From: Promethearchaeota archaeon
GTDB lineage: Archaea > Asgardarchaeota > Lokiarchaeia > Sigyniarchaeales > SOKP01
NCBI GenBank assembly: GCA_048938895.1
Contig: JBHLLU010000016.1
Location: 1 to 64,000, forward strand
Length of the DNA: 64,000 nucleotides
Reading direction: 5' to 3'
The translations under genes and the position numbers were made by a program. A model generated the notes under the pieces. It saw nothing but the letters and a program-made list of their open reading frames with translations, did not search any database and was not told the origin of the DNA. This document shows positions 1-62,991 of the stretch, piece by piece. The stretch's first letter is position 1. Each line of letters begins with the position of its first letter.

Positions 1-2
1 TG

Positions 3-650
3 ATGGGAGAATTAGGCGTCATGGGTATCGAGGTTCACAAGCAGTATGATGTCTTTGATTGGGTCATGTACAAACTTAACGCTAGTAAACGGAGAAGACG
101 GCTTGAACATACTGCAAGAAATTATATTCCTATGGATATCGGTGGGGAGGCCGTCTGGAACATGGGAAGTTATCTTGAGTGTCAAGAAAAAGGTTTTGAT
201 GGGTTTGTCCACATTTTTCCCTTTACTTGCATGCCAGAAATATCCCTCATGGGAATGTTAGAAGCTGAGAAAAATATGGACAAGTTTTACATGCCCCATA
301 TTCATATTAGTCTTGATGGGAGTTCTGGTTTTGAAGGACTTAGAACAAGAATCGAAGCATTTCATGATTTAATGGTTGGCAACAAGAAAACTAATCCCTT
401 GTTTAGAGATGCCAAGTATGTGGTCCCGGATGAAATAAAAAATATATATTTTAAGCCGAAATCCAATTTTGAATATTTCGTGTCTAGTATTCAAACACCA
501 ATGTCAAAAGTTTTAACAATGCTAAATCCAACCAAGAAATTAGATGTAGGATTCGCTGTTAAGAATGGACTCGAGTTTTTTTCAAGAAATTCGATTTTTG
601 GTATCAGATCTCTTTTAAATTCTGCCAGATCCCACGAAACACAGCCCTGA
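3..650 (+). CDS. PlsR-like / 2-hydroxyacyl-CoA dehydratase-type reductase subunit (5'-truncated by window edge)
   Basis: Clear paralog of the C-terminal half of 975..2162 (LGxMGxEvH, PMDIGGE, GFDGFVH.PFTCMPE, DxxSGxEGxRTRxEAF). The frame is open from the window start. Confidence 0.7.
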   Translation: MGELGVMGIEVHKQYDVFDWVMYKLNASKRRRRLEHTARNYIPMDIGGEAVWNMGSYLECQEKGFDGFVHIFPFTCMPEISLMGMLEAEKNMDKFYMPHIHISLDGSSGFEGLRTRIEAFHDLMVGNKKTNPLFRDAKYVVPDEIKNIYFKPKSNFEYFVSSIQTPMSKVLTMLNPTKKLDVGFAVKNGLEFFSRNSIFGIRSLLNSARSHETQP

Positions 651-974
651 GTTCGTCTGTTTTCGCCTCAAAACTACCTTGGGAACTAAGTAAAAAGCTA
701 ATAACATTTTTTTATAGACAAAATGAGAAATACCTAGTTAGCATTTTTAGAGTTTTATAGTTAGATTAAATAAAATGTAATACCGATAAAAATTATTAAT
801 TAAAACTAAGATTTTTAATAAGGAAAATCATACTTTTGATATTTGGTTTTAAATAGGTATATTTTTATTTTTTGCTTTGTTATTTAAACAATAGTTTATT
901 TAAATAACTGTCGATTATAATCATTCATTAGTTAATTAATACGTGTTATGAAGATTTAAGGAGTTCTAAGACAT

Positions 975-2162
975 ATGATCCTCTCATTCCCGAATATGGG
1001 TCCCAATGTTGTGGCTTTCAAGGCGTTATTCGAACAACTTGATATAGATGTTGTCTTACCTGACCCCACTAATCGAGAAGCTATTAAAATCGGAGTAAAA
1101 TATAGCCCTGAGTTTGTATGTTTTCCATTTAAAGCAACTTTAGGAGATTTTGTCAGTGCTATAAAAAAGGGAGCAGATACATTAATCATGGCAATTGATT
1201 GTGGACCATGTCGATTTGGATTTTATCATGCAGTACAAGAACGCCTTTTACATGATATGGGATATAAAGATGTGAATGTAATACCCCTGGATCAGGCTGA
1301 TCTACTCGAGTTTCATTGGGTCAAAACTCTACAAGAATTAAGTGGAAGAAGTGATTTGTTTTCTTATCCAAAATTCGTAAAAGCGGTCATTTTTTTCTTG
1401 AAAAAAGCTAAATTATTAAATGATATTCAAACCGCAGAAGGGTTATTCCGTGCATATGAACGAAATCAAGGAGATACTACAAAGATTGTAAAAACTCTGC
1501 ACAAAAAGCTTGATGAAACAAATAAACTCGCAGAATTAAGAAGATTTAAGAGTGTAATTAAAGAAGATTTCAATACTATCGATGTGGATAGAACCAGAAG
1601 TCCTCTCCGAGTTGGTCTTTCAGGAGAGATTCATATTAGTTTAGAACCCTATGTAAATCTCGATATACGGCGCAAGTTAGGGGAAATGGGTGTGGAAATT
1701 CATCAATCTATGAGTCTTTATGATTGGGTTGTCCATAAGTTTCATCTAAATTATCATAGAAAATGGCTAATGTATTTATCCCATGATTACCTCCCTATGG
1801 ATATAGGAGGTGAATGTGTCTGGGTACTTGGGGAATATATTGATAAGGCTAAAGCAGGATTCGATGGTTTTGTCCATGAGTATCCGTTCACTTGCATGCC
1901 AGAAGTAACGGCAAGGACAATCATTACCAATAAACTTAAAGGAATTTATGATTTACCCATTATATACTTTTCATTTGATGAGCATTCTGGAATGGAGGGC
2001 TTCCGTACGCGATTAGAAGCATTTGTGGATTTAATGAATGACAGAAGGAATCAGGAAATAAAGACAAATACTGAATTCCAAGCAAATGGAAATAAAAAAA
2101 TATATCCGCATTATGGGGATAATTTTTATAATGAATGTTCCAAATTATTACTAACGCAGTAA
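975..2162 (+). CDS. PlsR-like / CoA-activase-associated Fe-S reductase/dehydratase subunit
   Basis: Three-Cys pattern SPEFVCFPFK, GPCRFGFY, PFTCMPE. AGGAG Shine-Dalgarno upstream; adjacent to an activase. Confidence 0.75.
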   Translation: MILSFPNMGPNVVAFKALFEQLDIDVVLPDPTNREAIKIGVKYSPEFVCFPFKATLGDFVSAIKKGADTLIMAIDCGPCRFGFYHAVQERLLHDMGYKDVNVIPLDQADLLEFHWVKTLQELSGRSDLFSYPKFVKAVIFFLKKAKLLNDIQTAEGLFRAYERNQGDTTKIVKTLHKKLDETNKLAELRRFKSVIKEDFNTIDVDRTRSPLRVGLSGEIHISLEPYVNLDIRRKLGEMGVEIHQSMSLYDWVVHKFHLNYHRKWLMYLSHDYLPMDIGGECVWVLGEYIDKAKAGFDGFVHEYPFTCMPEVTARTIITNKLKGIYDLPIIYFSFDEHSGMEGFRTRLEAFVDLMNDRRNQEIKTNTEFQANGNKKIYPHYGDNFYNECSKLLLTQ

Positions 2163-2173
2163 AGGTAAATTAA

Positions 2174-3196
2174 ATGGTAGAAGTTTCAGATAAAACCGTA
2201 GAAAGTGAAGGAAAGCTAGATGCTTTTCTTGGAATTGATATTGGGAGTGTAACTTGTAAGTTTGTTTTAATGGATATGGATGGTAACGTACTTACAAGCG
2301 TATTTTTGCGAAATAGGGGTTCTCCTATTGAATCTGCTAAAGCAGGTATGGAGAATTTAAGAAAGAAAGTCGAAGAAAGCGAAGAATTACAAACTTATAC
2401 TATTCGAAGCTGTGGAACTACAGGTTCCGCGAGATATTTAACAAAAGCAATTGTTGGAGGAGATCTTGCTAAAACTGAGATTATTGCTCATGCTGTTGCT
2501 GCTCAGGCACTATATCCCGATGTAAGAACGATCTTGGAAATAGGGGGACAAGATTCTAAAATCATAATTCTTAGAGATGGAATAATTGTTGATTTTGCTA
2601 TGAATTCAGTGTGTGCTGCAGGCACAGGTTCTTTTTTAGACCATCAGGCAACAAGATTGGGGATCCCTATTGAAGAATTTGGAAGTTATGCCGTTAAATC
2701 GAAAAATCCAGTAAGTATTGCAGGAAGATGTACAGTATTTGCAGAATCAGATATGATTCATAAACAAAATGCAGGTTATTCTAAAGAAGATATTATTGCA
2801 GGATTATGTGATTCACTCGTTAGAAATTATATGAATAATTTATCAAAAGGAAAAGAACTGGCAGAACCCGTGGTTTTTCAAGGCGGAGTATCCTATAATA
2901 AGGGGATAGTCCAGGCGTTTGAAAGACATCTGGAATGTAAAGTAATTGTTCCTAAGTATAATGTTCTAATGGGTGCCTTAGGAATGGCAATCTTAGTCAG
3001 AGATTATTACCTTGATCATCAAAAAGAGACTTTGTTTCGAGGTCTTCATGTAGGTGATCTAGAGTTCAAAACCTCGGCTTTTCCATGTGGAGATTGCCCA
3101 AATAATTGTGAAATTGTTCAAGTTAAGATGCCTCAGGATGAAAATAAAGTAATAGCTCGATGGGGTAGTAGATGCGGAAAGTGGGAGGTATTTTAA
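2174..3196 (+). CDS. Acyl-CoA dehydratase activase (BadF/BadG/BcrA/BcrD ASKHA ATPase, [4Fe-4S])
   Basis: GIDIGSVTCK, EIGGQDSK, MNSVCAAGTGSFLD, AGRCTVFAESD and QGGV motifs; C-terminal CxxCxNxC...GSRC. Confidence 0.92.
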   Translation: MVEVSDKTVESEGKLDAFLGIDIGSVTCKFVLMDMDGNVLTSVFLRNRGSPIESAKAGMENLRKKVEESEELQTYTIRSCGTTGSARYLTKAIVGGDLAKTEIIAHAVAAQALYPDVRTILEIGGQDSKIIILRDGIIVDFAMNSVCAAGTGSFLDHQATRLGIPIEEFGSYAVKSKNPVSIAGRCTVFAESDMIHKQNAGYSKEDIIAGLCDSLVRNYMNNLSKGKELAEPVVFQGGVSYNKGIVQAFERHLECKVIVPKYNVLMGALGMAILVRDYYLDHQKETLFRGLHVGDLEFKTSAFPCGDCPNNCEIVQVKMPQDENKVIARWGSRCGKWEVF

Positions 3197-3200
3197 AAAA

Positions 3201-3395
3201 ATGACAGAGTTCTTGAAACAACTAAAAGAATTGGGAGAAGAATTTCTCGAAACATTAAGACATAAAACTAAATTAAGTACAATTTTTGACCTTTATACTG
3301 AGAAAGTTATTCCAACTTTCGTATCTGAAAAGGAGTTAAAAGAATATTACGAAAAACGAATGGAAGAAGTGAATGATTTTATAGATAAGTTATAA
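3201..3395 (+). CDS. Small helical hypothetical protein (64 aa) within the activase operon
   Basis: Starts 4 bp after the activase stop, GGAGG upstream, amphipathic charged helices. Confidence 0.6.
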   Translation: MTEFLKQLKELGEEFLETLRHKTKLSTIFDLYTEKVIPTFVSEKELKEYYEKRMEEVNDFIDKL

Positions 3396-3419
3396 AATAA
3401 TGTAAGGTGAAATTAAATT

Positions 3420-4112
3420 ATGGTTGAAGATCAAGTTATTCAAGAGGAATCAGATAAATTAAATCCAAAAGTTATAGCTACTGATGTCTTATACGGAGCA
3501 GTAAAAGGCTTGAGTGGACTATTCTTTCAAGCATTTATGAATTTAAGAATTGAAGGAAAAGAAAATGTACCAATAAGAGGAAAGGCGATTCTAACTACCA
3601 TAGCAGGAGATATTATACGAGATATGTTAATCCTCAGCCAGGTGACTGGTCGTAAAGTACATTTTATGATTGACCCAAAAATGATGAAGCATCAAATATT
3701 AGGCCCAGTTCTTAAAAGCCTTGGTATGATTCGAGGGACTGAAAGTAAAGAGGACACTGAGCCTATTGAGAAGATTTTTGACATTTTAAACAATCAGGGT
3801 GACCTTGTTGGGATGACTCCCGAAGGAAAACGTGATCGGGAAGTACAGGTGAAATCTATGGCAGCAATAATTAAATTTGCAATTGCTACAGATTCCCCAA
3901 TAATTCCAATAGCTATCATTCACGATAAGGCAAAAATATTGAATATGTTTACAGGCAATGCTATTAAAGTGAGAGTAGGCACTCCTCTTCAAATTGAAAA
4001 AAGGTTAAATCGTGAAAAATACCGTGCTGAAAGATATGAACTCGCTGAAGATATAATCAATATAATCGACAAACTTGGAGAAATTCCTGAAATAGAAGGA
4101 GATTTAGAATAA
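3420..4112 (+). CDS. PlsC-like lysophospholipid acyltransferase family protein with degenerate catalytic motif
   Basis: RIEGKENVP.RG, MTPEG.R, PIIPIAI and VRVGTPL blocks are typical of LPLAT, but NHxxxxD is replaced by TIAGDIIRD. AGGTGA SD. Confidence 0.75.
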   Translation: MVEDQVIQEESDKLNPKVIATDVLYGAVKGLSGLFFQAFMNLRIEGKENVPIRGKAILTTIAGDIIRDMLILSQVTGRKVHFMIDPKMMKHQILGPVLKSLGMIRGTESKEDTEPIEKIFDILNNQGDLVGMTPEGKRDREVQVKSMAAIIKFAIATDSPIIPIAIIHDKAKILNMFTGNAIKVRVGTPLQIEKRLNREKYRAERYELAEDIINIIDKLGEIPEIEGDLE

Positions 4113-4172
4113 ATTATCATATTTTCCATCAATTATTTTATTGTTTGAAGGGTTATTTTGGATTTTAATGAT

Positions 4173-5141
4173 TTAGATAAAGAAAAGATTCAATATTAAA
4201 AAAGCTGTTAGTATAACAGTTAATAGTATTCCATCTTTTCGATTCATGGCTTTTTTCTTTGAAATCAAGTTAAAATATATAATAACAGTTAGTAGAATCA
4301 ACCAATTCCAAAATATTACCCATAAAAATTTGAAATTCATAATAATAATAGCGCTAATTCCGAAAGTCAAAGTTAAGTTCCATATAACTTTTCCAATCAT
4401 TCCCCCCAAACCAATTTCGACACTTTTCTTTTTTATTGATTTAAAAACAAGTGTTATTTCTTCGACATTAGTTACAAACGCAATTATAACAAGCCCAAAA
4501 AATGTTTCAGGTATGTTAGTCGCTATTATAATTTGTCTTGCTGAATAAATTAACAATTCTCCACCAAGAAATATAAAAAAAAAGCTTAGGAGAATATAAA
4601 TTAATATTCTCAATCTTGATTCTTTTGCTATTGCGGTTGTTTGACTATCAGAAATTACCAATTCTTCCATTGGTGCATTCTCCACAATGTTATCTTTAGA
4701 TATTTGTTTTATATTCCTAAAAGTATAGATAAAATAAAGAATGATAACCATAATTCCGATTATGAATAAACCAAAATTAATCAGGATCCCGATGAGAATT
4801 AGAATAAGAGAAATATAAAGTAAGGAGAAATAAAATTGATGGATAGATTTAATATGGATTTGATAAAAATAAGCAGGGATAGCAAAACTTATAGTTAATG
4901 CAATTATAGAATTCCCAATAACATTTCCTACTGCTATATAAGAAAGATCATTAATCGCAGCAACAATTGAAGCAATAGATTCTTCGGGATCAATACCTAT
5001 GATTAACATGCCAATAATGAAAGGAGATATTCTATAAATAATGCATAAATCTTTTAAATTGTCCAAAAAGATATCTGCAGAAAAATATATCGTTAAATAT
5101 CCAACAATGAATAATACAATCCACAAAATAATAACATTCAT
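4173..5141 (-). CDS. Sodium:calcium antiporter (CaCA/YrbG family)
   Basis: About 10 TM; alpha-1 repeat GIDPEE...GNVIGNS and alpha-2 repeat TNVEE...GGMIG. Confidence 0.85.
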   Translation of the reverse strand: MNVIILWIVLFIVGYLTIYFSADIFLDNLKDLCIIYRISPFIIGMLIIGIDPEESIASIVAAINDLSYIAVGNVIGNSIIALTISFAIPAYFYQIHIKSIHQFYFSLLYISLILILIGILINFGLFIIGIMVIILYFIYTFRNIKQISKDNIVENAPMEELVISDSQTTAIAKESRLRILIYILLSFFFIFLGGELLIYSARQIIIATNIPETFFGLVIIAFVTNVEEITLVFKSIKKKSVEIGLGGMIGKVIWNLTLTFGISAIIIMNFKFLWVIFWNWLILLTVIIYFNLISKKKAMNRKDGILLTVILTAFLILNLFFI

Positions 5142-5147
5142 TTTAAA

Positions 5148-5753
5148 TTATGCTTTTTTATTCCAATGGATAAATATTTGGAATTTAAAACTTTTACCTT
5201 TATATTCACCGTCACTAATTGCGGAAAACTCAAATCCGTTATGCTCATGCCAATAAACAGAAGCTTTATTGAAAATAGGTTGCTCTACTATAAAAGCAAC
5301 TATAGGAGTATTAATTTTTTGTAAGGCTTCTTGAATAATTTTAGTACCAATCCCTTTACGCTTAAATTGAGGCAAAATACTAATCTGGTCTAAGTATGCA
5401 AACTCTGTTTTTTCATTAAGGAGTAAATCTTTCGTTTTATTATTTTCGAAGGAGAGATTTCCAATAACATCTCGTACTTTAACTATATTATACTTTTTCA
5501 TGTGGATGCTAGCAAATCCAATAATCTTCCCTTCATCACTTACAGCAATGTAGATATCGATGTCCCGATCCGCAATCAACTTTTTATAATAATCAATGTC
5601 GACTTCTTTTCTTAAAAAACCTTCTTCTTCTAACTTCTTTCGTTCTTGTTTTGAGATTTCATCGACATCCCTAATTTCAAACAGATTTTGCTTAAGGGCA
5701 TTAAGAATTCCTTCAGTGTCTTCTTCAGTAGCAATTTTAATTTCTGATTTCAA
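5148..5753 (-). CDS. GNAT family N-acetyltransferase
   Basis: Acetyl-CoA motif LDQISILPQFKRKGIGT and N..S..WHE.NGF; TTG start. Confidence 0.85.
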   Translation of the reverse strand: MKSEIKIATEEDTEGILNALKQNLFEIRDVDEISKQERKKLEEEGFLRKEVDIDYYKKLIADRDIDIYIAVSDEGKIIGFASIHMKKYNIVKVRDVIGNLSFENNKTKDLLLNEKTEFAYLDQISILPQFKRKGIGTKIIQEALQKINTPIVAFIVEQPIFNKASVYWHEHNGFEFSAISDGEYKGKSFKFQIFIHWNKKA

Positions 5754-5991
5754 AAAATAACCTTTGTTTAATATTTTTAGAACTTAATAAAAATAGAATA
5801 TTTGATACTAATATAATTCCTGTTATTTCATTAATTATCTTATATTAAGGTAGATTTAGTAGATTAGATTAATATCTAAATTTGATAGATTGAAATAAAT
5901 TAGATCCTAACTCCTTAATTTTTATAAAAAATAAGAATATTTTAAATTTCTAAGAGACATAGAATGTATTATAACTAATTAAGGGATATTT

Positions 5992-7398
5992 ATGGCGCTT
6001 TCAACTCCAAGTGATGAATATACATTTAAAGTGACTCTTGTTTTCTGGAAATTTTATGAAATAGGTAAGTATTTCGAATTACCCGAATTAAGAAGATTTC
6101 TCCAGGGAGAGGGAAAATTAAAAATCTATGAGCAATACCATTGCCAATTATCACATCCAATTACAGGAGAAAAATGCCATCAACCGTTGAAATGGATTTC
6201 AAGCCAGTCTCACAACTATGCTCCTGTCTGTTATAAAATTGGTAAATCAGAACGATTTTCCTGTCTTACGAACCCAAATATTGTAGGAAAAATCCGATTG
6301 GAGGGTCATATTCACTATGGATCAGTTTTAGTAATTCATTGTGAATTAGTATTCGATAATTATCATCCCATCGAAGATTTTATTGAAATCTCGCAACCAG
6401 AAAATATTATCCTTGCAAGTACTTCAAAACCCATAACAGAAAGATTTATTGAAATACGAGATGAAGTGATGGAGGTTCTTTCTAAAGGAAATTTCGCTGA
6501 TAAACCAAAACTTGAATCGGTATTGGAGCCCTGGCACCACACATGGATTTTGTGGGACGCACAGCCAGATTTCAACCGTTCAGATTATCGTTTTACAGGA
6601 GATAAAATTGGAAAAAATGCTCATTATTCAATTGGGCTTACATTAAGAACTGATAAATATCGTGAATTAGATCCCGTAGCATATAGAGACCAAATCAATC
6701 TTAAGAATTTAAGCCCTTATAAGGATGAATTTGTGATGATCACCCACGCAGGGAATGTCATCATCCCCGGATCAGGACTACTTGATCCTGACGCTATGAA
6801 GAACTTGTTCATCGACACATTATTCGCTCCTGAAGTAGGAAATGTACAAAGGTTTCTGATCTTGATGCATATGGAAAATATCCTAGTTGTTGCTGAAAAA
6901 TTTGATAGAATATTGTCAGAAACAAGAGCAATGGAAGAAGATTTAACTTTAAATGAAAAGATTGATAGGCTTGAAGCATTAGAAACCGAACTAAATAGAA
7001 TCATATTAGAATTAAATAAAGATGTAATAATCTCAAAAATTACTCGTCTATTATTTACAAGTACGTTTAAAACGAGTATGTTCAATGAACAAATCGACAA
7101 ATTGGATGGATTTAAATTTTCAAGAGCAACTGATGATGTTATTGCAAGAATTAGGAAAACTCTAAATAGACAAAGAAATACTCTAAATACGAAATCATCA
7201 GCAATAGAAAACAAATTCTTAGCGATACTTAATTATCTTGCAGTATTCGAAATTGCTATTTTGGTTATCTCTTTAGCATTAGGCGATTTAATCGGGCAAG
7301 AATTTTCCCCAGTTGTAGGGGTGATTCAAATAGTTATCGCATTTTGTGTTGTAATCATTGCATTTGCTATATATAGATGGCAGGCGAAAAAATTATAG
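5992..7398 (+). CDS. Hypothetical membrane protein with CorA-like architecture (soluble domain, long helices, two C-terminal TMs)
   Basis: 468-aa ORF with a coiled stalk followed by two TM segments. No GMN motif. Confidence 0.5.
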   Translation: MALSTPSDEYTFKVTLVFWKFYEIGKYFELPELRRFLQGEGKLKIYEQYHCQLSHPITGEKCHQPLKWISSQSHNYAPVCYKIGKSERFSCLTNPNIVGKIRLEGHIHYGSVLVIHCELVFDNYHPIEDFIEISQPENIILASTSKPITERFIEIRDEVMEVLSKGNFADKPKLESVLEPWHHTWILWDAQPDFNRSDYRFTGDKIGKNAHYSIGLTLRTDKYRELDPVAYRDQINLKNLSPYKDEFVMITHAGNVIIPGSGLLDPDAMKNLFIDTLFAPEVGNVQRFLILMHMENILVVAEKFDRILSETRAMEEDLTLNEKIDRLEALETELNRIILELNKDVIISKITRLLFTSTFKTSMFNEQIDKLDGFKFSRATDDVIARIRKTLNRQRNTLNTKSSAIENKFLAILNYLAVFEIAILVISLALGDLIGQEFSPVVGVIQIVIAFCVVIIAFAIYRWQAKKL

Positions 7399-7446
7399 TA
7401 AGTAGTTAACTTTTATTGTTTGTAAATTAAAAAAAAATGTATTATC

Positions 7447-8595
7447 ATGGTTGATTTCGTAAAATTACAAGGAAATCACGCTGAAAGAGGCTTTCAACAG
7501 GGAGATATTCTAAAAGATAAAATCCATTATATGTTTGAGGTTGTCTTTCATTCAAAGATGTTTTCAGAAGTGACATCCAAATTAGTTCCCCTCTCAATCA
7601 TAAAATTTGCTTTAGGAATCATGGGCAAGAGGAATATAAGAAAGCCTCTGAAAGAAGAACTCCCAAACCAGTATGAGAAAATGATTTCACTTGGAAAAGC
7701 GGCAGAAATAAACCAGAACATTTTATATGGCTCTCATTACATAGAAGTAATGTCTGGAGATCCGAAATCGATATATAAAAATCCGCCAGTTCAAGCTTGC
7801 TCCATGTTATTTGCCCTTTCAAATGCCACTGAAGATAATTCATTAATTTTTGGTCGAAATTATGATTTTCCTAATGTTTTACAACCATTCCAAGTTGTTC
7901 GAGAAGAATCTCCTGAGGAAGGATATAAAAATATAAATTTTACCCAATATCCACTTACAGGATGTCATATGGGATTAAATGAGAGAGGGTTAGCAATTGG
8001 TTACAATTATGGACGTTCTTGGAAAAAAGAACCACTTGATTTTAGATTAAGAGGTGTTCCTGGGAGTTTTATAGTCCAAGAGGTATTAGAAACTTGTGCA
8101 TCAACTAAAGAGGCTCTTGATTATATAACGAAATTCCCTTCTCGTTCAAATGGATGTCATTATGGACTTATGGATGCTTCGGGGGATACATGTGTAATAG
8201 AAACTACATGCACTCGACATGCTATTCGTCACCCTGAAGAAGGAATTTTGGCTCATACAAACCATTACCAAACAGAGAAACTTAGAGATGCCAATCTACC
8301 TGAGTATGTACGATTTAAAATGGATGATATGGATATCTCTCCTATAGAATCTCCCATAAAACGCTATGAGAGAGAAATAAAACTACTTAAGGAAAAGAAA
8401 GGGGGGATTACCTTTGATACTTTTAAAGATATTTTAAGTGATCATGACAATAGAGACCCTGATGACTTTACAGTTTGCACACATGGATCTTCTGCAGGTA
8501 CATTAGGTTCGATAATAATCCTGCCCAATAAAAAGGAATTTTGGGTTACTGATAATTATCCTTGTAGTTCCTATTATGAGAAATTTAATTTATAA
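7447..8595 (+). CDS. Peptidase C45 / acyl-CoA:6-APA acyltransferase-like Ntn hydrolase
   Basis: Autocleavage site QA|CS, GRNYD, GLNERGL, HTNHY. Confidence 0.85.
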   Translation: MVDFVKLQGNHAERGFQQGDILKDKIHYMFEVVFHSKMFSEVTSKLVPLSIIKFALGIMGKRNIRKPLKEELPNQYEKMISLGKAAEINQNILYGSHYIEVMSGDPKSIYKNPPVQACSMLFALSNATEDNSLIFGRNYDFPNVLQPFQVVREESPEEGYKNINFTQYPLTGCHMGLNERGLAIGYNYGRSWKKEPLDFRLRGVPGSFIVQEVLETCASTKEALDYITKFPSRSNGCHYGLMDASGDTCVIETTCTRHAIRHPEEGILAHTNHYQTEKLRDANLPEYVRFKMDDMDISPIESPIKRYEREIKLLKEKKGGITFDTFKDILSDHDNRDPDDFTVCTHGSSAGTLGSIIILPNKKEFWVTDNYPCSSYYEKFNL

Positions 8596-8619
8596 AAAAA
8601 GATAAACAAATTTAATTCT

Positions 8620-9108
8620 TTAATATCTTGTTCTGGTCGCTTGTATTCTGAGTTTTGCTTTAGTATTTTCTTTTTCGTCTTGCAGTATGACATACTGAGT
8701 TTTTGACGGCAGTTTGATCTCAAATTCTTGTTCAGCAACAGTGTGATCCTTTTTCAACGCATCTCTTTCCCGTAAAATGATAATAATCTTTTCTACTGCG
8801 GGTTGATCCACCCTAACTGTTTTAAATTGACTCCATAGAGACATATCTGCTCTTGATGTGAACTCTTGATTTCTCTGCAATTTAATAGTACCTTTATTAG
8901 GGAATCGCGCTTTGAAAAGCTTAGGTCCATCTACTTTGAAATAAAATTCTCCTCGCCATCCTAAGATATCATAATCTTTTAATGTCTTCAAACTCATTAA
9001 TTCGATACTAATAAAATAACGTTCTTTTTCTTCTCCTACTTGATCTTGGTCAAAAGATTGATCTTTCGCATGAGTCTTTTTCGATTTAGCATAATAACGT
9101 CGTGGAAT
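8620..9108 (-). CDS. C2-domain-like beta-sandwich protein; probable non-canonical ATT start at 9108 (first ATG at 8997)
   Basis: The frame stays open 37 codons upstream of the ATG, to an ATT 7 nt after an AAGGTG SD. Patterns LKDYDILG..GEFYFKV and IIIILRERD..KDH.V resemble C2 calcium-loop segments. Confidence 0.55.
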   Translation of the reverse strand: MPRRYYAKSKKTHAKDQSFDQDQVGEEKERYFISIELMSLKTLKDYDILGWRGEFYFKVDGPKLFKARFPNKGTIKLQRNQEFTSRADMSLWSQFKTVRVDQPAVEKIIIILRERDALKKDHTVAEQEFEIKLPSKTQYVILQDEKENTKAKLRIQATRTRY

Positions 9109-9250
9109 AAATATACACCTTAAGTTTTTTTATGAAAATCATGTTTTGAATTCTATATAGAGTCAAAATATTTATTTCTTTTTAGGATCATTATTAAAAA
9201 CTTAATAGTAGACAAGAAATAATTATTTAATTTTATATTCCCATATTTCT

Positions 9251-10012
9251 ATGATAAATATAATGATTTTTATAGCATTAGATGATTTGACACAATTATC
9301 GGGATTTTTTGGATTTATAGCGGTTTTGATAGCGTGGGCTTATGGAGTAATTGTCTTCTTTAAATTTCTTAAGACAAAGGAAAGAACTCTTTTATTCTTT
9401 TTCTTAGCAATCATGTTTACGATGTCTCCATGGTATCCAAGTGGATTGGGATATATATACTGGTTATTTACTCGGCAGGAGATATCTTATCCATTATATG
9501 TTTTACTTGGCACAATCGGAGTTCCTATTGCACTGATCTCATGGCTCCAAATATATATGCCTGTCTTGCATCCTAAAAGGAAAGACGTTGTCACGTTGAT
9601 AATCGCTTGTTTATCGTTATCGTTTTATATTTATTTATTCTATTTCGTCTTTTTAGCGCCTGGAGCTCCTGTGACAGAAGTTATTGGTATTAAAAGAAAT
9701 CCACTAGATATCGACTATAAAGGTTTTATATTGGTGTTTTTAGCAATTTCGCTACTAGTGAGTACAATTACAGGGAACGAATTTGCAATTACTTCACTTA
9801 AAGTAAAAGATAATCCAATTGTTAATTGGAAGGGGAGATTTCTAATAATTTCTTTCAACGTATTTGCGATTGGCTCTATTGGTGATGGATTCATCACCTT
9901 AACACCTGTTACTCTAATAGTATTTCGGACTTTTATGATGATTTCTAGTACCACGTATTATATTGGTTTTATTTTGCCAAAATGGATGAAAAAAATTCTC
10001 AAATTACAGTAA
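9251..10012 (+). CDS. Stand-alone 7TM membrane protein (HisKA_7TM-like sensor topology, no output domain)
   Basis: Seven hydrophobic segments and a short basic C-tail (LPKWMKKILK). Confidence 0.6.
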   Translation: MINIMIFIALDDLTQLSGFFGFIAVLIAWAYGVIVFFKFLKTKERTLLFFFLAIMFTMSPWYPSGLGYIYWLFTRQEISYPLYVLLGTIGVPIALISWLQIYMPVLHPKRKDVVTLIIACLSLSFYIYLFYFVFLAPGAPVTEVIGIKRNPLDIDYKGFILVFLAISLLVSTITGNEFAITSLKVKDNPIVNWKGRFLIISFNVFAIGSIGDGFITLTPVTLIVFRTFMMISSTTYYIGFILPKWMKKILKLQ

Positions 10013-14299: not shown

Positions 14300-15271
14300 T
14301 TAAACCTGAATCCAGAAAGAAAATAAAAATATATAAGATAGAAGATAAAGTGAAATAAAGAATATTCCTGCTTTCTTGTCTACTTTTTTTCTGGTAGCAA
14401 TAGTTATAAAAACAAAAAAACTAGCAATTAAAGTATATAAAACAGTAGGAATTGCTAGGGCTGCTGTTATATTATTAGGGTTTTGATTAAATACAACATT
14501 TCCAATACCAATAGAAAGAGTTGAATCTACTATACACGAACCTACTATATCACCAATAGCAATTTGATGATGCCCCAATCTTAAGGCATTTATATCAACG
14601 GCCAGTTCGGGTAGGGAAGTACCAATTGCTACTATGAAGAAACTTATGATATATTCATTGACATCTAAAATTTCAGAAATAAATATGACAGATTCAACAA
14701 TCATAATGGAAGCTATTGTTACTCCCACAAATCCTAAAATTGCGAGAAAAAGGTGAAACATTTTACTTTTTGGTGCTTCTATTTTCTCAATCATTTCCAT
14801 TCTTTGCAAAATACTCTCTTTATTAGCGTTATAAATTAACCATATGTAAATCCCTAAACACCCAACCAGTAAAATACCATCTAATCGAGTAACGTAACTT
14901 TTTTCAATAATTGTAAAAATTAAAACTAAAGACAATACTTCACATGTTCCTAAAATAATGATATCCTTTCTGTGAATATAAATCACTCCTGTGACTATTG
15001 GTAATATACCAAAGATCAAGGTAAGTTGTGCTAAATCCGATCCTACAGAATCACCAATATCAATATCAGCATGACCTATTGAACAAGATACAAGTGAATT
15101 AAAGATTTCTGAGATATCCGTGCCTATTGAAACTAATGAAACACCAATTATTAAAGGTGAGATTCCTAAGGCTGCTGCAAGAATAGCAGAATGTTTCACT
15201 GCCTTTATACTGCAATAAATTATTAATGCTATTCCAGCTATTAACAATATATATGCTATTAATATATTCAT
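14300..15271 (-). CDS. Sodium:calcium antiporter (CaCA/YrbG family)
   Basis: SIGTDISE...GDSVGS and AIGTSLPE...GDIVGS alpha repeats. Confidence 0.9.
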   Translation of the reverse strand: MNILIAYILLIAGIALIIYCSIKAVKHSAILAAALGISPLIIGVSLVSIGTDISEIFNSLVSCSIGHADIDIGDSVGSDLAQLTLIFGILPIVTGVIYIHRKDIIILGTCEVLSLVLIFTIIEKSYVTRLDGILLVGCLGIYIWLIYNANKESILQRMEMIEKIEAPKSKMFHLFLAILGFVGVTIASIMIVESVIFISEILDVNEYIISFFIVAIGTSLPELAVDINALRLGHHQIAIGDIVGSCIVDSTLSIGIGNVVFNQNPNNITAALAIPTVLYTLIASFFVFITIATRKKVDKKAGIFFISLYLLSYIFLFSFWIQV

Positions 15272-15439
15272 AAGTTTTGGGATAGTATTTTTTTATTATA
15301 GAATCCTACTGTCTTAAACAATATGCAATATATTTATAAATCATTGGAACTCTTCAATTATGAGACTTTGAATAATAGCTTATTAATCTAATATTATTTA
15401 TGAGTATCTATTTCTCCATTTCTATTAGTGATATTTTCG

Positions 15440-15487
15440 TATATAAAGCTATCCATTTTTCATCCAAGGATATCCATATTATATCCA
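15440..15487 (+). promoter_or_regulatory. TATA box followed by four phased ATCCA direct repeats (putative RHH operator)
   Basis: TATATAAA at 15440-15447; ATCCA at 15451, 15462, 15472 and 15483 (spacing 11/10/11). Confidence 0.5.
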
Positions 15488-15529
15488 TAATTCGAAAATT
15501 TATTATATTAAAAAAAAGAGAACTAATTA

Positions 15530-15685
15530 ATGGTTGAACACAAAGAATTTCATATTTCTCTAGAGGCAGATGTTTTTGATAAATTAGAGGTTATTAGAGA
15601 TTATCATGGAATAAAGAATGTAACTGAAATTATACGTTTTCTAATTACCAAAGAGTACAGGGAAATAAAAAAAACAGATTTTTAA
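15530..15685 (+). CDS. Ribbon-helix-helix (CopG/Arc/MetJ-like) protein, 51 aa, not in the ORF track
   Basis: Manual translation MVEHKEFHISLEADVFDKLEVIRDYHGIKNVTEIIRFLITKEYREIKKTDF fits strand-helix-G-turn-helix. Confidence 0.7.
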   Translation: MVEHKEFHISLEADVFDKLEVIRDYHGIKNVTEIIRFLITKEYREIKKTDF

Positions 15686-15713
15686 AATGATTGCTCGTTT
15701 ACACGACCAATCA

Positions 15714-18218
15714 CTAGAAATAGTAAAAACCCCAATACATTCCAGATAGAAATATCACTAATACGAAGGATAACAGTAAAGAGTTGGTCTTTGTAGTTAG
15801 GTAGGCACTAATAAATCCAAATAACAAAAATATCCCAGAGCTAATGAGGGGAAACCATAATAAAAAACTTGTCCATATCCAGAAAATGAAAGCATTTAGA
15901 ATTATTGATAATGCTTTAGAATATCTAATTAGAAGGATTCGTAAAATTATTCCTCTAAACAATACTTCCTGCCAAAAGAAAAAGGTAATTGTCGACAAAA
16001 AGGTAATAAATTCGTAAATATAAAACTCTGTTCCGATAAGATAAATTGAAAATTGAATGGATAATAGAAGATCCAATATTAGGACAGAAATTATAAGAGA
16101 AGCAGCCCATATGATTCCCCGTAACAAGGAGATTGTCCAACCCAATCCAATACTAATCGTATAATCTTTTATTGTTTGTCTTCCGTATGGTAAGCCTAGG
16201 AAAAAAGGTACTATGATTAATAATAATGATATAAAAATTAAATTACTTAAGATCAATTGTATACTACTCTGAACATACCCAAAAAAGAAAAATCTATCAC
16301 CTGTGTAAAAAGAGGGAGAAGCCATTACATTAAACATGCTTATCTGGTAAAAAATATAATATAGAAATAATAGTAGTAGGATAGATGCCCAGGGATGGGA
16401 ACATAAGATAGTTGGATTTTGTATTATCATTGGTTCTGGGGTCATTTCTTCATAAACCATTTTTTCTTCATTAAAAACTAATTTTTCTCTTTTTCTTTTT
16501 GAGGGGAATATTTTATTATAAATCATTAAAACGAAAACAAGAAGTGAAACTCCAACGAGAACTATAAACCAGATCATTCCTACAAAATTTCTGAAAATAA
16601 AAAACATAAACACGAAAGATATAATCCAAAAACTAATTATATACTGTAAACAAAAAATTAACACCCATTTGAATAACTTGTTTGTTGCATTCACCTCCCT
16701 GAGAACATAATGTTCACCTATTTTTCCAAAAAACATAAGTTTTAACTCAAAGATGAGTAATAAGAATAGCCAAATAAATGGTAGTGCGACAAAGGTTGCA
16801 ATTAGAATTCCTTGAGAGTTGGGATCATTTATAAACATCAAATTAGGTAAAAATGTCGCAATTGTCTGGATTGTAAAAATAAGAAATAATTTTGTTCTAG
16901 CTTGCTGTTCAGGAATGATTGGTAAAGCTGTGAGAACAGATTGCCCCGAATCCTCGAGACTCAGAATACTATAAATAAGCATTATCGAAAGAATAGGATG
17001 GAAAATTAACATCCCTATCCAATTATTGTAAATCACACTTACTATATATAGTGGTACCCCAATGCTCCCTTGATTAAAATAAAACATATAAATAAATGCC
17101 AAAATAACAGAAGTCACAATTGCTAGAAATGTTTTTAGATCATGAGTAATTAAAATCAAATCCTTACGAAGATAAGCTCGTTTAGGGGAACAGGGTTTAA
17201 TCTGAACTTTTATCTTTTTTTTACCCTTTTTGGAGATTTTTTTATCTTTAGAGCTTCGAAATTTAGAAAATGTCAACTTTTCAAGTTGTTTCAAAACTAC
17301 AACATAAAGACCCCAAATTATAAGGATATAAATAATCAATCCAATGATTGAACTCACCCATAATCCCAATGGAGTGCGATCTTTTACAATCAAGTTTAAG
17401 ATTAAATAGCTTGAATTAAACGGATAGGGAATACCACTAAGAAACATATTAGTCATTTCTGGATTTTGGATATGTAAGAATAAACGAAAGAACCTATCAA
17501 TTGACCCAAATGCCCACTGAATTAAATACATGCTTCCTAGAGTTATTATTATATAACTTATTATATTAAATAGCCGAATCGTATAGGATCGTCTTGAATT
17601 TATCTCGTTTACGTCTAAGACACGATTTATTCTTCCCCCAACTAAAATAAGGATATTAAGAGAAAACATAACGTTTAACACAGAAATTCCAATGCTCATT
17701 AAAAAAATCAATATATTTGAAGTTCCGAGAAATAATACTATTGGAAAAGTTAATATAATCACAAGAATAGGAATATCAAAACTACGGAAGATGGTAACGA
17801 ATACTATTCTCTTTAATTTTTCTCTTGGAATTGGCAGAGTTTCAAACCATTGAAATATTCTACCTGACATTATCATACCGGTTTCTAACATACCCATTAA
17901 AAAGAAGTTAAAAAATTGAAGCATAAAAAATAAGCCAAAATATAAACTCCCATGGAATATAATTATTTCAACCGAAATTAAACTATTGATAAGGTAATCT
18001 GCGATCTGAAAATAACCCAGAAGAGGAAAAATAGGAAGAATACCAAAAATAATAGCATAAAAAATCTTCACCCGAATAATTTTTAATGACATAGATCTTT
18101 TTCTTTTCTTGGTTTTCTCCCATGATCCTAATTGATTAGTTAAAATTAACCCATCAATCAGTAATTCATGATTTGTGTATTTTGCTAAATAGTAAAGCGC
18201 TAGTTTTTCACTTGTCAT
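15714..18218 (-). CDS. Polytopic membrane protein: ABC-2/exporter-permease-like region fused to a degenerate CPBP (Abi/CAAX protease) domain
   Basis: Two permease-like repeats (LPIP..L; KDL...LPII) and a C-terminal FFWQEVLFRG resembling EExxFRG, with the downstream His motifs absent. Confidence 0.6.
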   Translation of the reverse strand: MTSEKLALYYLAKYTNHELLIDGLILTNQLGSWEKTKKRKRSMSLKIIRVKIFYAIIFGILPIFPLLGYFQIADYLINSLISVEIIIFHGSLYFGLFFMLQFFNFFLMGMLETGMIMSGRIFQWFETLPIPREKLKRIVFVTIFRSFDIPILVIILTFPIVLFLGTSNILIFLMSIGISVLNVMFSLNILILVGGRINRVLDVNEINSRRSYTIRLFNIISYIIITLGSMYLIQWAFGSIDRFFRLFLHIQNPEMTNMFLSGIPYPFNSSYLILNLIVKDRTPLGLWVSSIIGLIIYILIIWGLYVVVLKQLEKLTFSKFRSSKDKKISKKGKKKIKVQIKPCSPKRAYLRKDLILITHDLKTFLAIVTSVILAFIYMFYFNQGSIGVPLYIVSVIYNNWIGMLIFHPILSIMLIYSILSLEDSGQSVLTALPIIPEQQARTKLFLIFTIQTIATFLPNLMFINDPNSQGILIATFVALPFIWLFLLLIFELKLMFFGKIGEHYVLREVNATNKLFKWVLIFCLQYIISFWIISFVFMFFIFRNFVGMIWFIVLVGVSLLVFVLMIYNKIFPSKRKREKLVFNEEKMVYEEMTPEPMIIQNPTILCSHPWASILLLLFLYYIFYQISMFNVMASPSFYTGDRFFFFGYVQSSIQLILSNLIFISLLLIIVPFFLGLPYGRQTIKDYTISIGLGWTISLLRGIIWAASLIISVLILDLLLSIQFSIYLIGTEFYIYEFITFLSTITFFFWQEVLFRGIILRILLIRYSKALSIILNAFIFWIWTSFLLWFPLISSGIFLLFGFISAYLTTKTNSLLLSFVLVIFLSGMYWGFYYF

Positions 18219-26384: not shown

Positions 26385-27512
26385 TTACTTAATCTTACCT
26401 GTGGCATTCTTCAATAGACTTTCAGCTTCAGATACCATGTCATTAATGATTTTTGATACACTCTCAATGCTATTAATTACACCAATACTTTGTCCTAAAA
26501 GAACTGCTCCAGAATTAACATCACCTCTGTAAGCTGCAAGATATGCATTAGATGAAGCGATAAGTTCTTTAACATAATCTTCACGAGACATACTCCGGAG
26601 TGCTTGTTCTTCTGCAATTTTTGCTTCTTTATCAGCAACAAGTCCATGATGCAATGAATAATCGTTTCTCCATAATCTTATTGGCCCCAGAGCACCAGTA
26701 ACTAAAATAGTATCTGATGCTTTTGAAGGAGGGACAACACCTTTATAGTTTTCATGAAATTCTGAATCTTCACTGGCAATGAATCGTGAACCCATAGCTA
26801 TCCCACCTGCACCCATAGCAAGAGCTGCTGCTAAACCTGCTCCATTAGCAAATCCACCACACGCAATTACTGGGAAATCAGGATATTTTGCATGGACTTG
26901 TTGAAGCAATACGAGAGTACTAACCTTTTCATAAGATTGATGTCCTCCTCCTTCACCACCAGTCACAACCATACCGTCTACACCCGACGCAACGCATTTA
27001 TCTGCTAACCATAAAGCCGGAGCAACATGAAAGTGTTTAATTTCAGATTTCTCCTTTAATTCCTGGAATGACTTACTAGAGGGTAAAATTTTAGAAGATC
27101 CGGCACTAGTAAGTGCATAAATACACTGATCTCTAATCCTCTGGTTCTCCATTATAAATTTTGGGATTTCTGAACAGAGTTTTGGTGCTTGAATTTCATT
27201 TCTTGAGGTTCTAATATTAAAACCAAAAGGTTTATCCGTATGTTCCACTACAAATTCCATATTATTTTTCATTGCTTTTACTACATCAATACCCATCCTT
27301 CTCATAGTTGTTTCATCAATTTCAATATCTGCAGATGTAGTTTCCTCCCTAATATCAGATCCTCGTTCTATTGATGTATGGGATAACACACCTAAACCCC
27401 CTGCTTCACTAACAGCAACGCATAGGTCTGTGGTATAAAAAGGGCCCATTGCAGCACTAAAAATTGGATGTTTAATTCCAAACATCTTGGTAATATTTGT
27501 TTCAAATGTCAT
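26385..27512 (-). CDS. Nitronate monooxygenase / FabK-like FMN oxidoreductase
   Basis: AVSEAGGLG, GGEGGGH, PVIACGG, MGSRFIAS, GQSIG. Confidence 0.88.
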   Translation of the reverse strand: MTFETNITKMFGIKHPIFSAAMGPFYTTDLCVAVSEAGGLGVLSHTSIERGSDIREETTSADIEIDETTMRRMGIDVVKAMKNNMEFVVEHTDKPFGFNIRTSRNEIQAPKLCSEIPKFIMENQRIRDQCIYALTSAGSSKILPSSKSFQELKEKSEIKHFHVAPALWLADKCVASGVDGMVVTGGEGGGHQSYEKVSTLVLLQQVHAKYPDFPVIACGGFANGAGLAAALAMGAGGIAMGSRFIASEDSEFHENYKGVVPPSKASDTILVTGALGPIRLWRNDYSLHHGLVADKEAKIAEEQALRSMSREDYVKELIASSNAYLAAYRGDVNSGAVLLGQSIGVINSIESVSKIINDMVSEAESLLKNATGKIK

Positions 27513-55815: not shown

Positions 55816-55836
55816 ATCTTACACTTATTATATATT

Positions 55837-57420: not shown

Positions 57421-57433
57421 TATAGTCTTTAAT

Positions 57434-62019: not shown

Positions 62020-62991
62020 TTGATTTGTATGGAAGATTACGCAATTATTTACAATCCTGTTGCTGGTAAAGGAAAAAGAATTAAAAAAGATATTAAGTTT
62101 GCTAGCAAGTGTCTAGATGATTTGAATATATCTTATAAACTTATCGGGAGCGAATATGCAGGAAACGCAATAGAGTTAGCAGCGCAATTTGCAAAAGATG
62201 GTTACATTGTTATTGGAGCAGGAGGAGATGGTACGTGCAATGAGGTTATGAATGGAGTGGTTAGTTCAAAATCAGGAGCATTATGCGGATTTATTCCTAT
62301 GGGATCTGGAAATGATATTCCTGCTGCAATCGGGATCCGTCCTGATATTAAAAGAGCATGCGAGATAATCGCTGAGGGGCATAATTCAAAAGCAGATATC
62401 GGTATCGCGAAAACTGATACTGGTGTTCAACGGTACTTTTTAGGGATAGGAAGTCAAGGATTTGATGCGGAAGTTACGAGAAGAGCGAATGAAGCTAAGA
62501 GAAGCAAAAATTACACCATGCAAACACTTTTGGCATTATTTCCTTGGAAAAATAAAGAAGTAAGGGTAATTATGGATAATGATAGCTATGAGGGGATGGC
62601 GAATTGTTTGGCTGTAGCCAATGGTCCTTCTTACGGTGGTTTTATGTATATCTGTCAAAGAGCTCGAGTAGATGACGGCATTTTTCATGTTAATATTGTT
62701 GATATTGGTAAATTCAAACTTCTTAAACATTTTAATAGAATGTTCAAAGCTACACTCTTGCCTCACCCAAATATTTATGAATACACAAGTAGAAATGTAA
62801 GAGTCGAAATGAAGAATTCTGATAATGAACCATATCACTGCCAAGTAGATGGGGAAGTATTAGGTCCTGTACCCGTTACATATGAAAACATTGAAAATGG
62901 TCAGGAATTTATTCGTCCCGATCTCGATGAAGTTGCTGAAGCTTTTAAGGTTAAATATGGACGATATTTCTGGGAATGTGAAGATGATTAA
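62020..62991 (+). CDS. Diacylglycerol/lipid kinase family protein (YegS/DgkB-like)
   Basis: NPVAG, GGDGT.NEV, PMGSGND, GFDA, YGG, DDG, QVDGE. Confidence 0.92.
   Translation: MICMEDYAIIYNPVAGKGKRIKKDIKFASKCLDDLNISYKLIGSEYAGNAIELAAQFAKDGYIVIGAGGDGTCNEVMNGVVSSKSGALCGFIPMGSGNDIPAAIGIRPDIKRACEIIAEGHNSKADIGIAKTDTGVQRYFLGIGSQGFDAEVTRRANEAKRSKNYTMQTLLALFPWKNKEVRVIMDNDSYEGMANCLAVANGPSYGGFMYICQRARVDDGIFHVNIVDIGKFKLLKHFNRMFKATLLPHPNIYEYTSRNVRVEMKNSDNEPYHCQVDGEVLGPVPVTYENIENGQEFIRPDLDEVAEAFKVKYGRYFWECEDD

Follow-up and report, generated by a model that had tools for sequence, protein, structure and literature searches.

The window examined here is a stretch of 64,000 nucleotides, the first 64 kb of a contig (C114) from the genome of a Promethearchaeota archaeon. 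At its left end lies a row of five co-directional open reading frames (ORFs), here named RedA, RedB, Act, s64 and PlsCl (Table 1), in which an earlier sequence-only reading had recognised a split relative of the PlsA/PlsR plasmalogen synthases coupled to a PlsC-like gene. The row is real and its positions are as then described, with intergenic gaps of 324, 11, 4 and 24 bp, the last three all downstream of position 975. Because the contig starts where the window starts, the first ORF must be the tail of a longer gene of roughly 440 codons; neither this fragment nor the 64-residue ORF has a Pfam or NCBIfam match at the thresholds used. The Asgard origin proposed for the DNA was also borne out: the 120 best RedB homologues come from sources under Promethearchaeota, Loki-, Thor-, Odin- or Hermodarchaeota or metagenome labels, with 'Nanopelagicaceae' the sole exception, and identities of 76-100% across this set mark RedB as strongly conserved. 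Working labels are used below for genomes (G), contigs (C), loci (L) and Asgard families (f).

Table 1. Features at the left end of the window.
Feature	Position	Strand	Description
RedA, C-terminal 215 aa	3..650	+	Red2-type paralogue; cut by the contig start
Conserved non-coding element	780..925		Within the 324-bp gap upstream of RedB
RedB, 395 aa	975..2162	+	Red2-type subunit of an iron-sulfur reductase/dehydratase of the split DUF2229 type, related to PlsA/PlsR/Ger
Act, 340 aa	2174..3196	+	Stand-alone ASKHA activase (HgdC/BcrAD type) with a C-terminal extension of ~60 aa
s64, 64 aa	3201..3395	+	Conserved ORF of no known family that travels with the Red/Act module
PlsCl	3420..4112	+	LPLAT protein with the PlsC fold whose HX4D motif has no catalytic His; probably non-catalytic

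RedB matches the Pfam family DUF2229 (PF09989) with 44.3 bits against a cut-off of 29.4, over residues 8-70 and positions 10-73 of the 218 in the profile, and touches HGD-D (PF06050) at residues 294-352 with 19.4 bits, below the cut-off of 28.4. Three cysteines, C49, C79 and C307, are invariant among 44 sequences of its family. Single-sequence searches of solved structures gave no match for RedB or PlsCl, and profiles were needed; by profile, the C-terminal ~65 residues of RedB, third cysteine included, align to HadC (3o3m_B) and to the double-cubane cluster protein (DCCP, 7yyl_C). The companion family, Red1, consists of proteins of about 350-370 residues that match DUF2229 over its full length and end in an HGD-D tail, and the Red1 and Red2 families each have three invariant cysteines. 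A Red1 protein of this genome, D350, is encoded on another contig (C53:20370-21422), scores 157.7 bits over DUF2229 profile positions 1-217, and is 61-75% identical to the Red1 proteins that adjoin RedB in other genera; it is probably the Red1 partner of RedB, parted from the rest of its module. RedB itself is the Red2 subunit of a split, DUF2229-type member of the radical-enzyme superfamily of benzoyl-coenzyme A (CoA) reductases and 2-hydroxyacyl-CoA dehydratases.

Act carries one PF01869 (BcrAD_BadFG) domain (E = 2.9e-51) and stands alone; RedB for its part has no activase domain. It scores 207 bits against TIGR00241 (cut-off 125) and matches the solved activators 4EHT (E = 1.3e-38) and 1HUX (E = 5e-34), with the cysteines of CAAGTG and CTVFAES aligned; we take these to be the residues that hold the bridging [4Fe-4S] cluster. 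The C-terminus reads CGDCPNNC...GSRC, and a four-cysteine tail of this kind is present in 96 of the 97 activase-like sequences from the loci fetched, among them (as CxxCxxxC...C) the second activase domain of fused Act-Act-DUF2229 proteins. Family scores and tail together confirm the ASKHA activase ending in a cysteine motif and GSRC that had been read from the letters, and Act is the dedicated, ATP-dependent activase of the RedB enzyme.

The place of RedB within the superfamily was approached with profiles and with trees. Aligned by hhalign, the RedB family pairs with split Red1 at a probability of 99.9% (E = 5.8e-36) and with the PlsR-position domain at 98.1% (E = 1.2e-13, 331 columns), and the three invariant cysteines of the split Red1, split Red2 and PlsR-position families fall on one another. 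By BLAST, RedB finds the C-terminal domain of two of seven fused Asgard proteins (E = 2e-16 and 8e-13), while D350 aligns to the first Red domain of such proteins. A FastTree tree of 149 rows and an IQ-TREE quick tree of 126 rows, the latter with larger groups thinned to seven rows each, were built with six HGD-D proteins of this genome as the root. The DUF2229-type domains all fall into a single clade apart from those six (support 87 in FastTree and 93 in IQ-TREE), and in both trees RedB belongs to a clade of split-type Red2 (99, 99) that includes a Lokiarchaeial subclade (99, 99). FastTree makes the BBD-type (PlsR-position) Red2 domains sister to split Red2, whereas IQ-TREE sets them outside Red1 plus split Red2. 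The proposed likeness to PlsA/PlsR consequently stands for the DUF2229 branch as a whole and fails for the PlsR-position clade, inside which RedB falls in neither tree; the companion claim, that the subunits do not cluster with HgdAB/FldBC dehydratases, held, as both trees separate them from the PF06050 proteins of the genome. By these placements the Red subunits are members of a separate, widespread "split" lineage within the DUF2229 branch that holds PlsA/PlsR and Ger. PF09989 matches are reported in the control genomes of T. maritima and L. lactis.

RedA and RedB are Red2-type paralogues belonging to two tandem modules, and neither is Red1. The RedA fragment is 46% identical to RedB residues 234-364 and 91% identical to an orthologue in L022 that is preceded by an activase gene (Act') and a gene for a DUF2229 protein; in relatives RedA is 441-444 residues long, with full-length copies in L049 and L052. 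The two genes are thus paralogous, as had been claimed, and are not the Red1 and Red2 halves of one enzyme. Module A consists of FAD::Red1'-Act'-RedA and module B of RedB-Act-s64-PlsCl with the detached Red1 D350; in this genome module A is inserted directly upstream of RedB. A 293-residue fragment at the very start of C53 (C53:2-880, minus strand) is 93% identical to residues 16-307 of an 837-residue FAD_binding_4::DUF2229::HGD-D fusion, and in the relatives G140, G136 and G003 the genes next after this fusion are Act', RedA and the row RedB-Act-s64-PlsCl. Given that order, the starts of C53 and C114 are very probably neighbours, with, again very probably, about 3.4 kb unassembled between them, predicted to contain the remainder of FAD::Red1', Act' and the N-terminus of RedA. 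The start of C53 had also been considered as the place of the missing RedA N-terminus, and this was rejected: what it holds is the N-terminus of FAD::Red1'.

The fusion itself, seen whole at L049:12128-14641 on the minus strand, joins a FAD_binding_4 domain of the VAO/PCMH type to a DUF2229/HGD-D Red1 domain and is followed by an activase and RedA. The nearest solved structures to its FAD part are cytokinin dehydrogenases (E = 1e-19), with a weak match to alkyl-dihydroxyacetonephosphate synthase (E = 5e-4). It is a matter of speculation that a flavin domain on Red1 might supply an extra reduction step.

Contig C53 carries, on its minus strand and in this order, a HAD phosphatase gene, an 801-residue ORF, a 4HBT thioesterase gene, a gene for a protein with two PlsC domains (the double PlsC), a block of trp genes, D350, an OYE-type flavoprotein, a GNAT/MarR protein, a 985-residue Act-Act-DUF2229 protein, a 469-residue protein, about 12 kb of other genes, and finally the first 293 residues of the FAD_binding_4 protein, which runs off the contig start. 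The genes for the 985-residue protein, which is of the BBD form (14502-17459), and for the 469-residue protein, which has no Pfam match, are 3 bp apart within C53:13090-17459 (L015, minus strand). The former aligns to residues 1 to ~970 of all seven fused Asgard proteins of 1389-1521 residues, and the latter to the C-terminal ~420 residues of six of the seven, so this genome has, besides the split system, a two-gene pair of the PlsA/PlsR type (Ger-like). In the relative G003 a pair of this type is contiguous with double PlsC and Red1 (L029).

PlsCl had been read as a protein of glycerolipid acyltransferase fold. The fold is confirmed: PlsCl scores 42.7 bits against PF01553 (cut-off 23), 38 bits against TIGR00530 (cut-off 103), and its family profile matches Thermotoga maritima PlsC (5KYM) over residues 27-206 at E = 4.6e-12. 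Acyltransferase activity is not supported, for the histidine of the HX4D motif falls on a column of the PlsCl profile occupied by Ser, Thr or Ala. Among the best 120 PlsCl homologues, all Asgard-labelled, annotated LPLAT/PlsC and aligned together, none has His at this position; the Asp and the block III "PE" are kept. The window copy reads TIAGDIIRD there. Block III is TPEGKR in this copy and PESRH, PEAKR or PEARH in orthologues, with only "PE" constant, and the proline-rich strand of block IV is retained. Lacking the HX4D histidine, PlsCl is probably non-catalytic and hence probably no acyltransferase. The intact acyltransferase of the system is the double PlsC on C53 (555 residues here, 557-563 in relatives), which has two PF01553 domains with HX4D and (F/Y)PEGT in both halves; the genome holds three PF01553 domains only, two in this protein and one in PlsCl. 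Degeneration of a PlsC fold has a second, independent instance among these operons: in family f2, the second of the PlsC-fold genes that precede Red1 (L025:2882-3691 and L031:6478-7260) has neither HX4D nor PEG.

Presence and linkage were counted across 201 sampled Asgard genomes. The full operon, as found in other genera of the family, runs HAD phosphatase (261-264 residues), double PlsC, Red1, Red2, Act, s64 and PlsCl. This order is complete in L039, L053 and L054, and likewise in L119 save that s64 went undetected there; in L050 the genes from double PlsC through PlsCl are present, interrupted by inserted ORFs, and the locus ends before the HAD position. The f2/f3 loci L025, L027 and L031 have PlsC genes upstream and then Red1, Red2 and Act, to which L027 adds s64 and PlsCl. 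A RedB-type match at E <= 1e-20 occurs in 59 genomes (34 of 40 in f1 plus the genome of the window, 3 of 3 in f2, 18 of 21 in f7 and 3 of 3 in f29) and in none of the 23 other Asgard families. PlsCl matches number 45 genomes (38 of 40 in f1; 2 of 3 in f2, where the match is to the canonical upstream PlsC; and, weakly, 4 of 10 in f24), and double PlsC is found in 44 (38 of 40 in f1, 3 of 3 in f2, and two single matches elsewhere).

Thirty-five f1 genomes have a RedB-type match, and in 25 of these PlsCl follows at a distance of up to 7 kb (in 23, up to 3 kb), with contig and strand the same. The two genes are on different contigs in eight others; one of the remaining two has only a RedA-like match, and the other has a RedB fragment and no PlsCl. 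In 16 of the 35, double PlsC precedes RedB on its contig and strand, within 3.5 kb in 14, although in two of those 14 the adjoining RedB piece is a remnant of ~64 residues. The arrangement of RedB with a PlsC-like gene is not a product of chance. Synteny with plsC, which the sequence-only reading had proposed to test across Asgard genomes, is conserved in the Lokiarchaeia (f1, f2 and f3) and was not found beyond Lokiarchaeia-type loci in the bacterial and Asgard loci scanned.

Two genomes show the operon without its reductase. In G198 (L040, 2453-6659) the HAD gene and double PlsC are followed by an unrelated ORF of 202 residues and PlsCl, with Red1, Red2, Act and s64 all absent, and a tblastn map of L041 in G112 gives the same layout from double PlsC to PlsCl, again without Red1, Red2, Act and s64. 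Both genomes are listed as 100% complete, and neither has a RedB match at E <= 1e-20. These layouts make the reductase module, s64 included, look like an optional insert inside an acyltransferase operon, and PlsCl may belong functionally to either the reductase or the acyltransferase side. The allegiance of s64 is plainer: copies 53-92% identical were found in 11 loci, never outside operons that combine the Red/Act genes with the PlsC-like gene, and it disappears together with Red1, Red2 and Act in L040. It is a small accessory protein, for which searches of Pfam, at the thresholds used, and of the Atlas gave no family and no usable match, respectively.

The conserved element in front of RedB is roughly 130 nt long and 83% identical to C53:916-1043 (minus strand), upstream of the FAD::Red1' gene. 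These are its two copies in the genome, besides three short (30-45 nt), weak matches, and its core is kept upstream of RedB in two relatives. Since it is found upstream of RedB and of the FAD fusion gene only, shared regulation is suggested, and the element is probably a promoter or regulatory region common to module B and the module upstream. No Rfam family matches window 1-6000, element included. A scan of the window with sigma-70 promoter and terminator models did no better than on shuffled sequence, the sigma-70 model not being applicable to archaea.

Beyond the Lokiarchaeia the split lineage is large. A profile search covering 1.84 billion representatives found 3909 proteins (cluster representatives) at E <= 1e-3, 2369 at 1e-10 and 718 at 1e-30, the best 150 being either 281-506 or 671-770 residues long. 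The closest longer relatives of RedB are Red1-Red2 fusions of 693-777 residues in Desulfobacterota, Chloroflexota, Actinomycetota and others, with no form of ~1400 residues among the best 120. In a scan of 80 bacterial and Asgard loci from species genomes, an activase gene adjoins the Red genes in 67. Among 15 loci annotated with Pfam, five include lipid-related neighbours: a PLD-type cardiolipin-synthase-like gene with glpP and glycerol-3-phosphate dehydrogenase genes (L067), glpP with a glycerol-kinase-type gene (L114), an LpxL-type acyltransferase with a B12 radical SAM gene and MMPL (L073), MMPL (L086), and a B12 radical SAM gene (L103). In one f29 locus (L047, G150, 6600-9880, minus strand) genes for DegV, of a fatty-acid-binding family, and PlsY lie directly upstream of Red1-Red2-Act, a neighbourhood not seen in the 23 other f7/f29 loci. 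Linkage to lipid genes is strong in the Lokiarchaeia and patchy elsewhere. A 266-residue ORF upstream of Red1 in a Helarchaeota locus (L093) was considered as a further PlsC-like gene and rejected at an hhalign probability of 0.5%. Three of five bacterial genomes examined have both a long DUF2229 protein (at least 1000 residues) and a split or Red1-Red2 form, so the two lineages coexist there as they do in this Asgard genome.

The split enzyme and PlsCl can be compared with characterised systems. PlsA/PlsR, encoded by CPE1194/1195 in C. perfringens and as a single chain in Enterococcus and Lactococcus, is described in PMC12838417 as activase domain(s) plus Red1 plus Red2, the same components as here. 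The likeness extends to DUF2229, to three conserved cysteines per Red domain and to the four-cysteine activase tail. A two-gene split exists there too, with a boundary between the end of PlsA and the beginning of PlsR that we place presumptively. PlsA/PlsR has two fused activase domains, whereas Act is separate, single-domain and presumably a homodimer; the gene order here is Red1-Red2-Act, with PlsC-fold and HAD genes in the operon; and RedB sits in the split lineage, not with the PlsR-position domain. Ger (T. maritima Tmari_0479; D. alkenivorans SHJ90043) has the order BBDHDDH, a full DUF2229 followed by a short DUF2229 and HGD-D (PMC13159169), and Red1 followed by RedB repeats this pattern: a full D and H, then a short D at residues 8-70 and H at 294-352. 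Ger is nevertheless one chain with two activase domains and the proteins here are split; the pair of 985 and 469 residues on C53 is a closer Ger-like candidate than the RedB system. The thresholds of the Ger survey, as given there (E <= 1e-50 and coverage of at least 30% of Ger; PMC13159169), would probably miss proteins as short as these. HadBC with HadI (3O3M, 4EHT) follows the same three-component logic, a heterodimer with [4Fe-4S] clusters and a separate ASKHA activator; Act finds HadI at the E-value given above, and the C-terminal cluster-cysteine segment of the Red subunits aligns to HadBC. It differs in that only ~65 Red residues align, the Pfam family is another, and HadI (276 residues) has no activase tail. 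With T. maritima PlsC (5KYM), a lysophosphatidic acid acyltransferase, PlsCl shares the fold, "PE" and block IV, the catalytic His being replaced by Thr, Ala or Ser.

Window 975-4112 is best explained as the distal transcription unit of a Lokiarchaeial lipid gene cluster whose parts are dispersed. PlsA/PlsR and Ger are reported to turn sn-1 esters into ethers (PMC9702350 and PMC13159169), and conversion of lipid esters to ethers by the Red1/Red2/Act system is the reading we favour, with a confidence that falls slightly short of even. The double PlsC would place an acyl ester on a glycerol-type backbone and the HAD enzyme would remove the phosphate. A dimer of Act would take an electron from a low-potential donor, and ATP hydrolysis would drive it into the three-cysteine [4Fe-4S] sites of a Red1/Red2 heterodimer, which would reduce and dehydrate the acyl-ester carbonyl to an alk-1-enyl or alkyl ether in the manner of PlsA/PlsR and Ger; PlsCl may bind the lipid or acyl chain without transferring it. 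Alkyl and alkenyl products are not to be told apart from sequence alone (PMC11868695). We infer this scheme from the chemistry of the superfamily and from PlsA/PlsR and Ger, while the families, cysteines and operon structure on which it is built were observed. A bolder form, which we put forward tentatively and think doubtful, is that the Lokiarchaeial operon is self-contained and makes fatty-acid-derived alkyl or alkenyl ether glycerolipids, the HAD enzyme and double PlsC building the ester lipid and the dead PlsC-fold protein presenting it; on that reading the split family, with its thousands of members in anaerobic Bacillota, Desulfobacterota and Chloroflexota, would count as another ester-to-ether machinery, so far unrecognised, next to PlsA/Ger. 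The earlier preference for lipid-linked over amino-acid chemistry is strengthened by the acyltransferase linkage in the Lokiarchaeia, and by the evidence against an HgdAB-type enzyme given below; its further step, ether formation, is plausible only.

A number of observations weigh against ester-to-ether conversion. PlsCl stays beside double PlsC where the reductase is lost, so that its role may lie with the acyltransferase and not with the reductase. The parts are scattered in this genome across two contigs and more than 30 kb. The RedB family is closer by profile to split Red1 than to the PlsR-position domain, the split Red2 clade excludes the BBD-type Red2 domains in both trees, and the trees disagree on deep branching order; they were built without experimentally validated PlsA, PlsR or Ger sequences, so that the place of these enzymes in the BBD group rests on their published architecture (PMC13159169 and PMC12838417). 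A PlsC-like gene accompanies the Red genes in just one of the 80 bacterial and Asgard loci, the Loki-like L119, and in none of the 24 f7/f29 Asgard loci, and no PF01553 domain occurs among 110 flanking ORFs in the 15 annotated loci. In four of those 15, from sporeformers, the three genes lie between spoVAF and a pyridoxal-phosphate (PLP) enzyme plus lysA, and in six the neighbours are uninformative. A cultured Lokiarchaeon yielded only archaeal lipids, according to PMC13400652, which allows that the method may have missed ester lipids.

A first rival reading is a split enzyme whose substrate is soluble, or at least not part of a membrane, for instance an acyl-thioester, an acyl-phosphate or a small metabolite, the PlsC-fold and HAD genes building or consuming an acylated small molecule in place of a membrane glycerolipid. 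There is no adjoining lipid gene in 10 of the 15 annotated loci and in 23 of the 24 f7/f29 loci, four of the 15 belong to a spoVA...lysA (sporulation or lysine-diaminopimelate) neighbourhood, and a 4HBT thioesterase adjoins double PlsC in this genome; PF01553 enzymes, moreover, acylate non-glycerol acceptors as well. We nonetheless consider such a substrate rather unlikely. Two intact PlsC domains with a HAD phosphatase suggest the classic glycerolipid logic of acylating twice and then dephosphorylating, four bacterial loci have cardiolipin-synthase-like, glp, LpxL-type or MMPL neighbours, and the architecturally closest branches of known function, PlsA/PlsR and Ger, act on glycerolipid esters (PMC9702350 and PMC13159169). 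If the substrate is a lipid, it could still be an archaeal one, the cluster remodelling isoprenoid lipids by, for example, acylating and then reducing a lyso-archaeal or head-group position. The finding of archaeal lipids only in cultured Lokiarchaeota (PMC13400652) speaks for this, as does a CDP-archaeol-synthase-like gene 3 kb from one f7 locus; that single CarS neighbour, however, is on the other strand and so not co-directional, and no GGGPS, DGGGPS or CarS occurs in any Lokiarchaeial operon examined, which leaves the idea improbable.

Two further possibilities dispense with lipids. The system might be a general ATP-dependent, low-potential reductase like that of DCCP, acting on small molecules with no fixed link to lipids: the best solved match of the Red1 profile is 7yyl_C (E = 1.2e-6), its activase partner 7yyl_E is matched as well (E = 9.6e-26), and the family is very large and present in many anaerobes, as the 2369 cluster representatives at E <= 1e-10 attest. 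The match is confined, however, to the C-terminal ~70 residues, the Pfam family is DUF2229 and not HGD-D, and conserved operon membership with acyltransferases in the Lokiarchaeia argues for a specific substrate; we regard a DCCP-like role as having a slim chance. Slimmer by far, and already contradicted, is a 2-hydroxyacyl-CoA dehydratase of amino-acid fermentation of the HgdAB/FldBC type. A weak PF06050 match at the C-termini of RedB and Red1 and an activase of the HgdC family point that way, but the RedB match is the sub-threshold one noted above (19.4 against 28.4 bits), the genome has nine strong PF06050 matches elsewhere and short activases on C44 and C83, both trees part DUF2229-type domains from HGD-D proteins, and no CoA-transferase or 2-hydroxyacid dehydrogenase lies nearby.

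The cluster offers a testable path to ether lipids built on fatty acids in the archaea that are most closely related to eukaryotes. Homologues of PlsC/PlsY and, separately, of Ger are reported in Asgard genomes, the latter in Lokiarchaeota (PMC13159169), and such homologues fuel debate on how an archaeal host might have turned to bacterial-type membranes during eukaryogenesis (PMC6737245, PMC13159169 and PMC13400652). All PlsC-fold genes of the genome, in this Lokiarchaeial family, go back to a single operon that also includes a phosphatase and an ATP-driven, PlsA/Ger-related reductase. What was a loose list of "bacterial lipid genes" is thereby narrowed to five to seven defined genes, open to expression and assay. 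Of the genes that commonly carry the annotation "PlsC", one lacks the catalytic His, a caution against counting it as an acyltransferase. In the literature searched we found no description of the operon, of the split lineage or of the His-less PlsC-like gene, and the archaeal Ger hits in the supplement of PMC13159169 may include some of these genes.

The split genes have a setting of their own in four sporeforming Bacillota (loci L059, L065, L075 and L132, of Desulfotruncus, Orenia, Natroniella and Pelotomaculum type). Red1-Red2-Act sit there between a spoVA operon (spoVAC, spoVAD, spoVAEB, spoVAE and spoVAF) and the PLP enzyme plus lysA, a position that suggests a forespore-linked role.

The strong PF06050 matches of the genome of the window (E = 7e-105 to 2e-26) are encoded on C44, C83, C123, C160 and C120, with HgdAB-type sets on C44, C83 and C123. 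The clusters at C44:2173-6608 and C83:88881-92225 hold genuine HGD-D dehydratase subunits, each with a short activase (268-273 residues), and are the candidate 2-hydroxyacyl-CoA dehydratases of the genome.

Elsewhere in the window, the acyl-CoA ligase (30420-32282), NMO/FabK-like (26385-27512) and diacylglycerol-kinase-like (62020-62991) genes that the sequence-only reading had noted are present, at distances of 22-58 kb from the cluster. A row on the minus strand at 52433-58570, encoding Rad50-like (AAA_23/SMC_N), Mre11-like (Metallophos), HerA (DUF87) and NurA proteins, is the usual archaeal DNA end-resection cluster. At 28957-30258, also on the minus strand, a 433-residue protein has a Ras/Roc/Arf-type small GTPase domain at residues 139-309, preceded by an N-terminal part that matches no assigned domain, and is typical of Asgard genomes.

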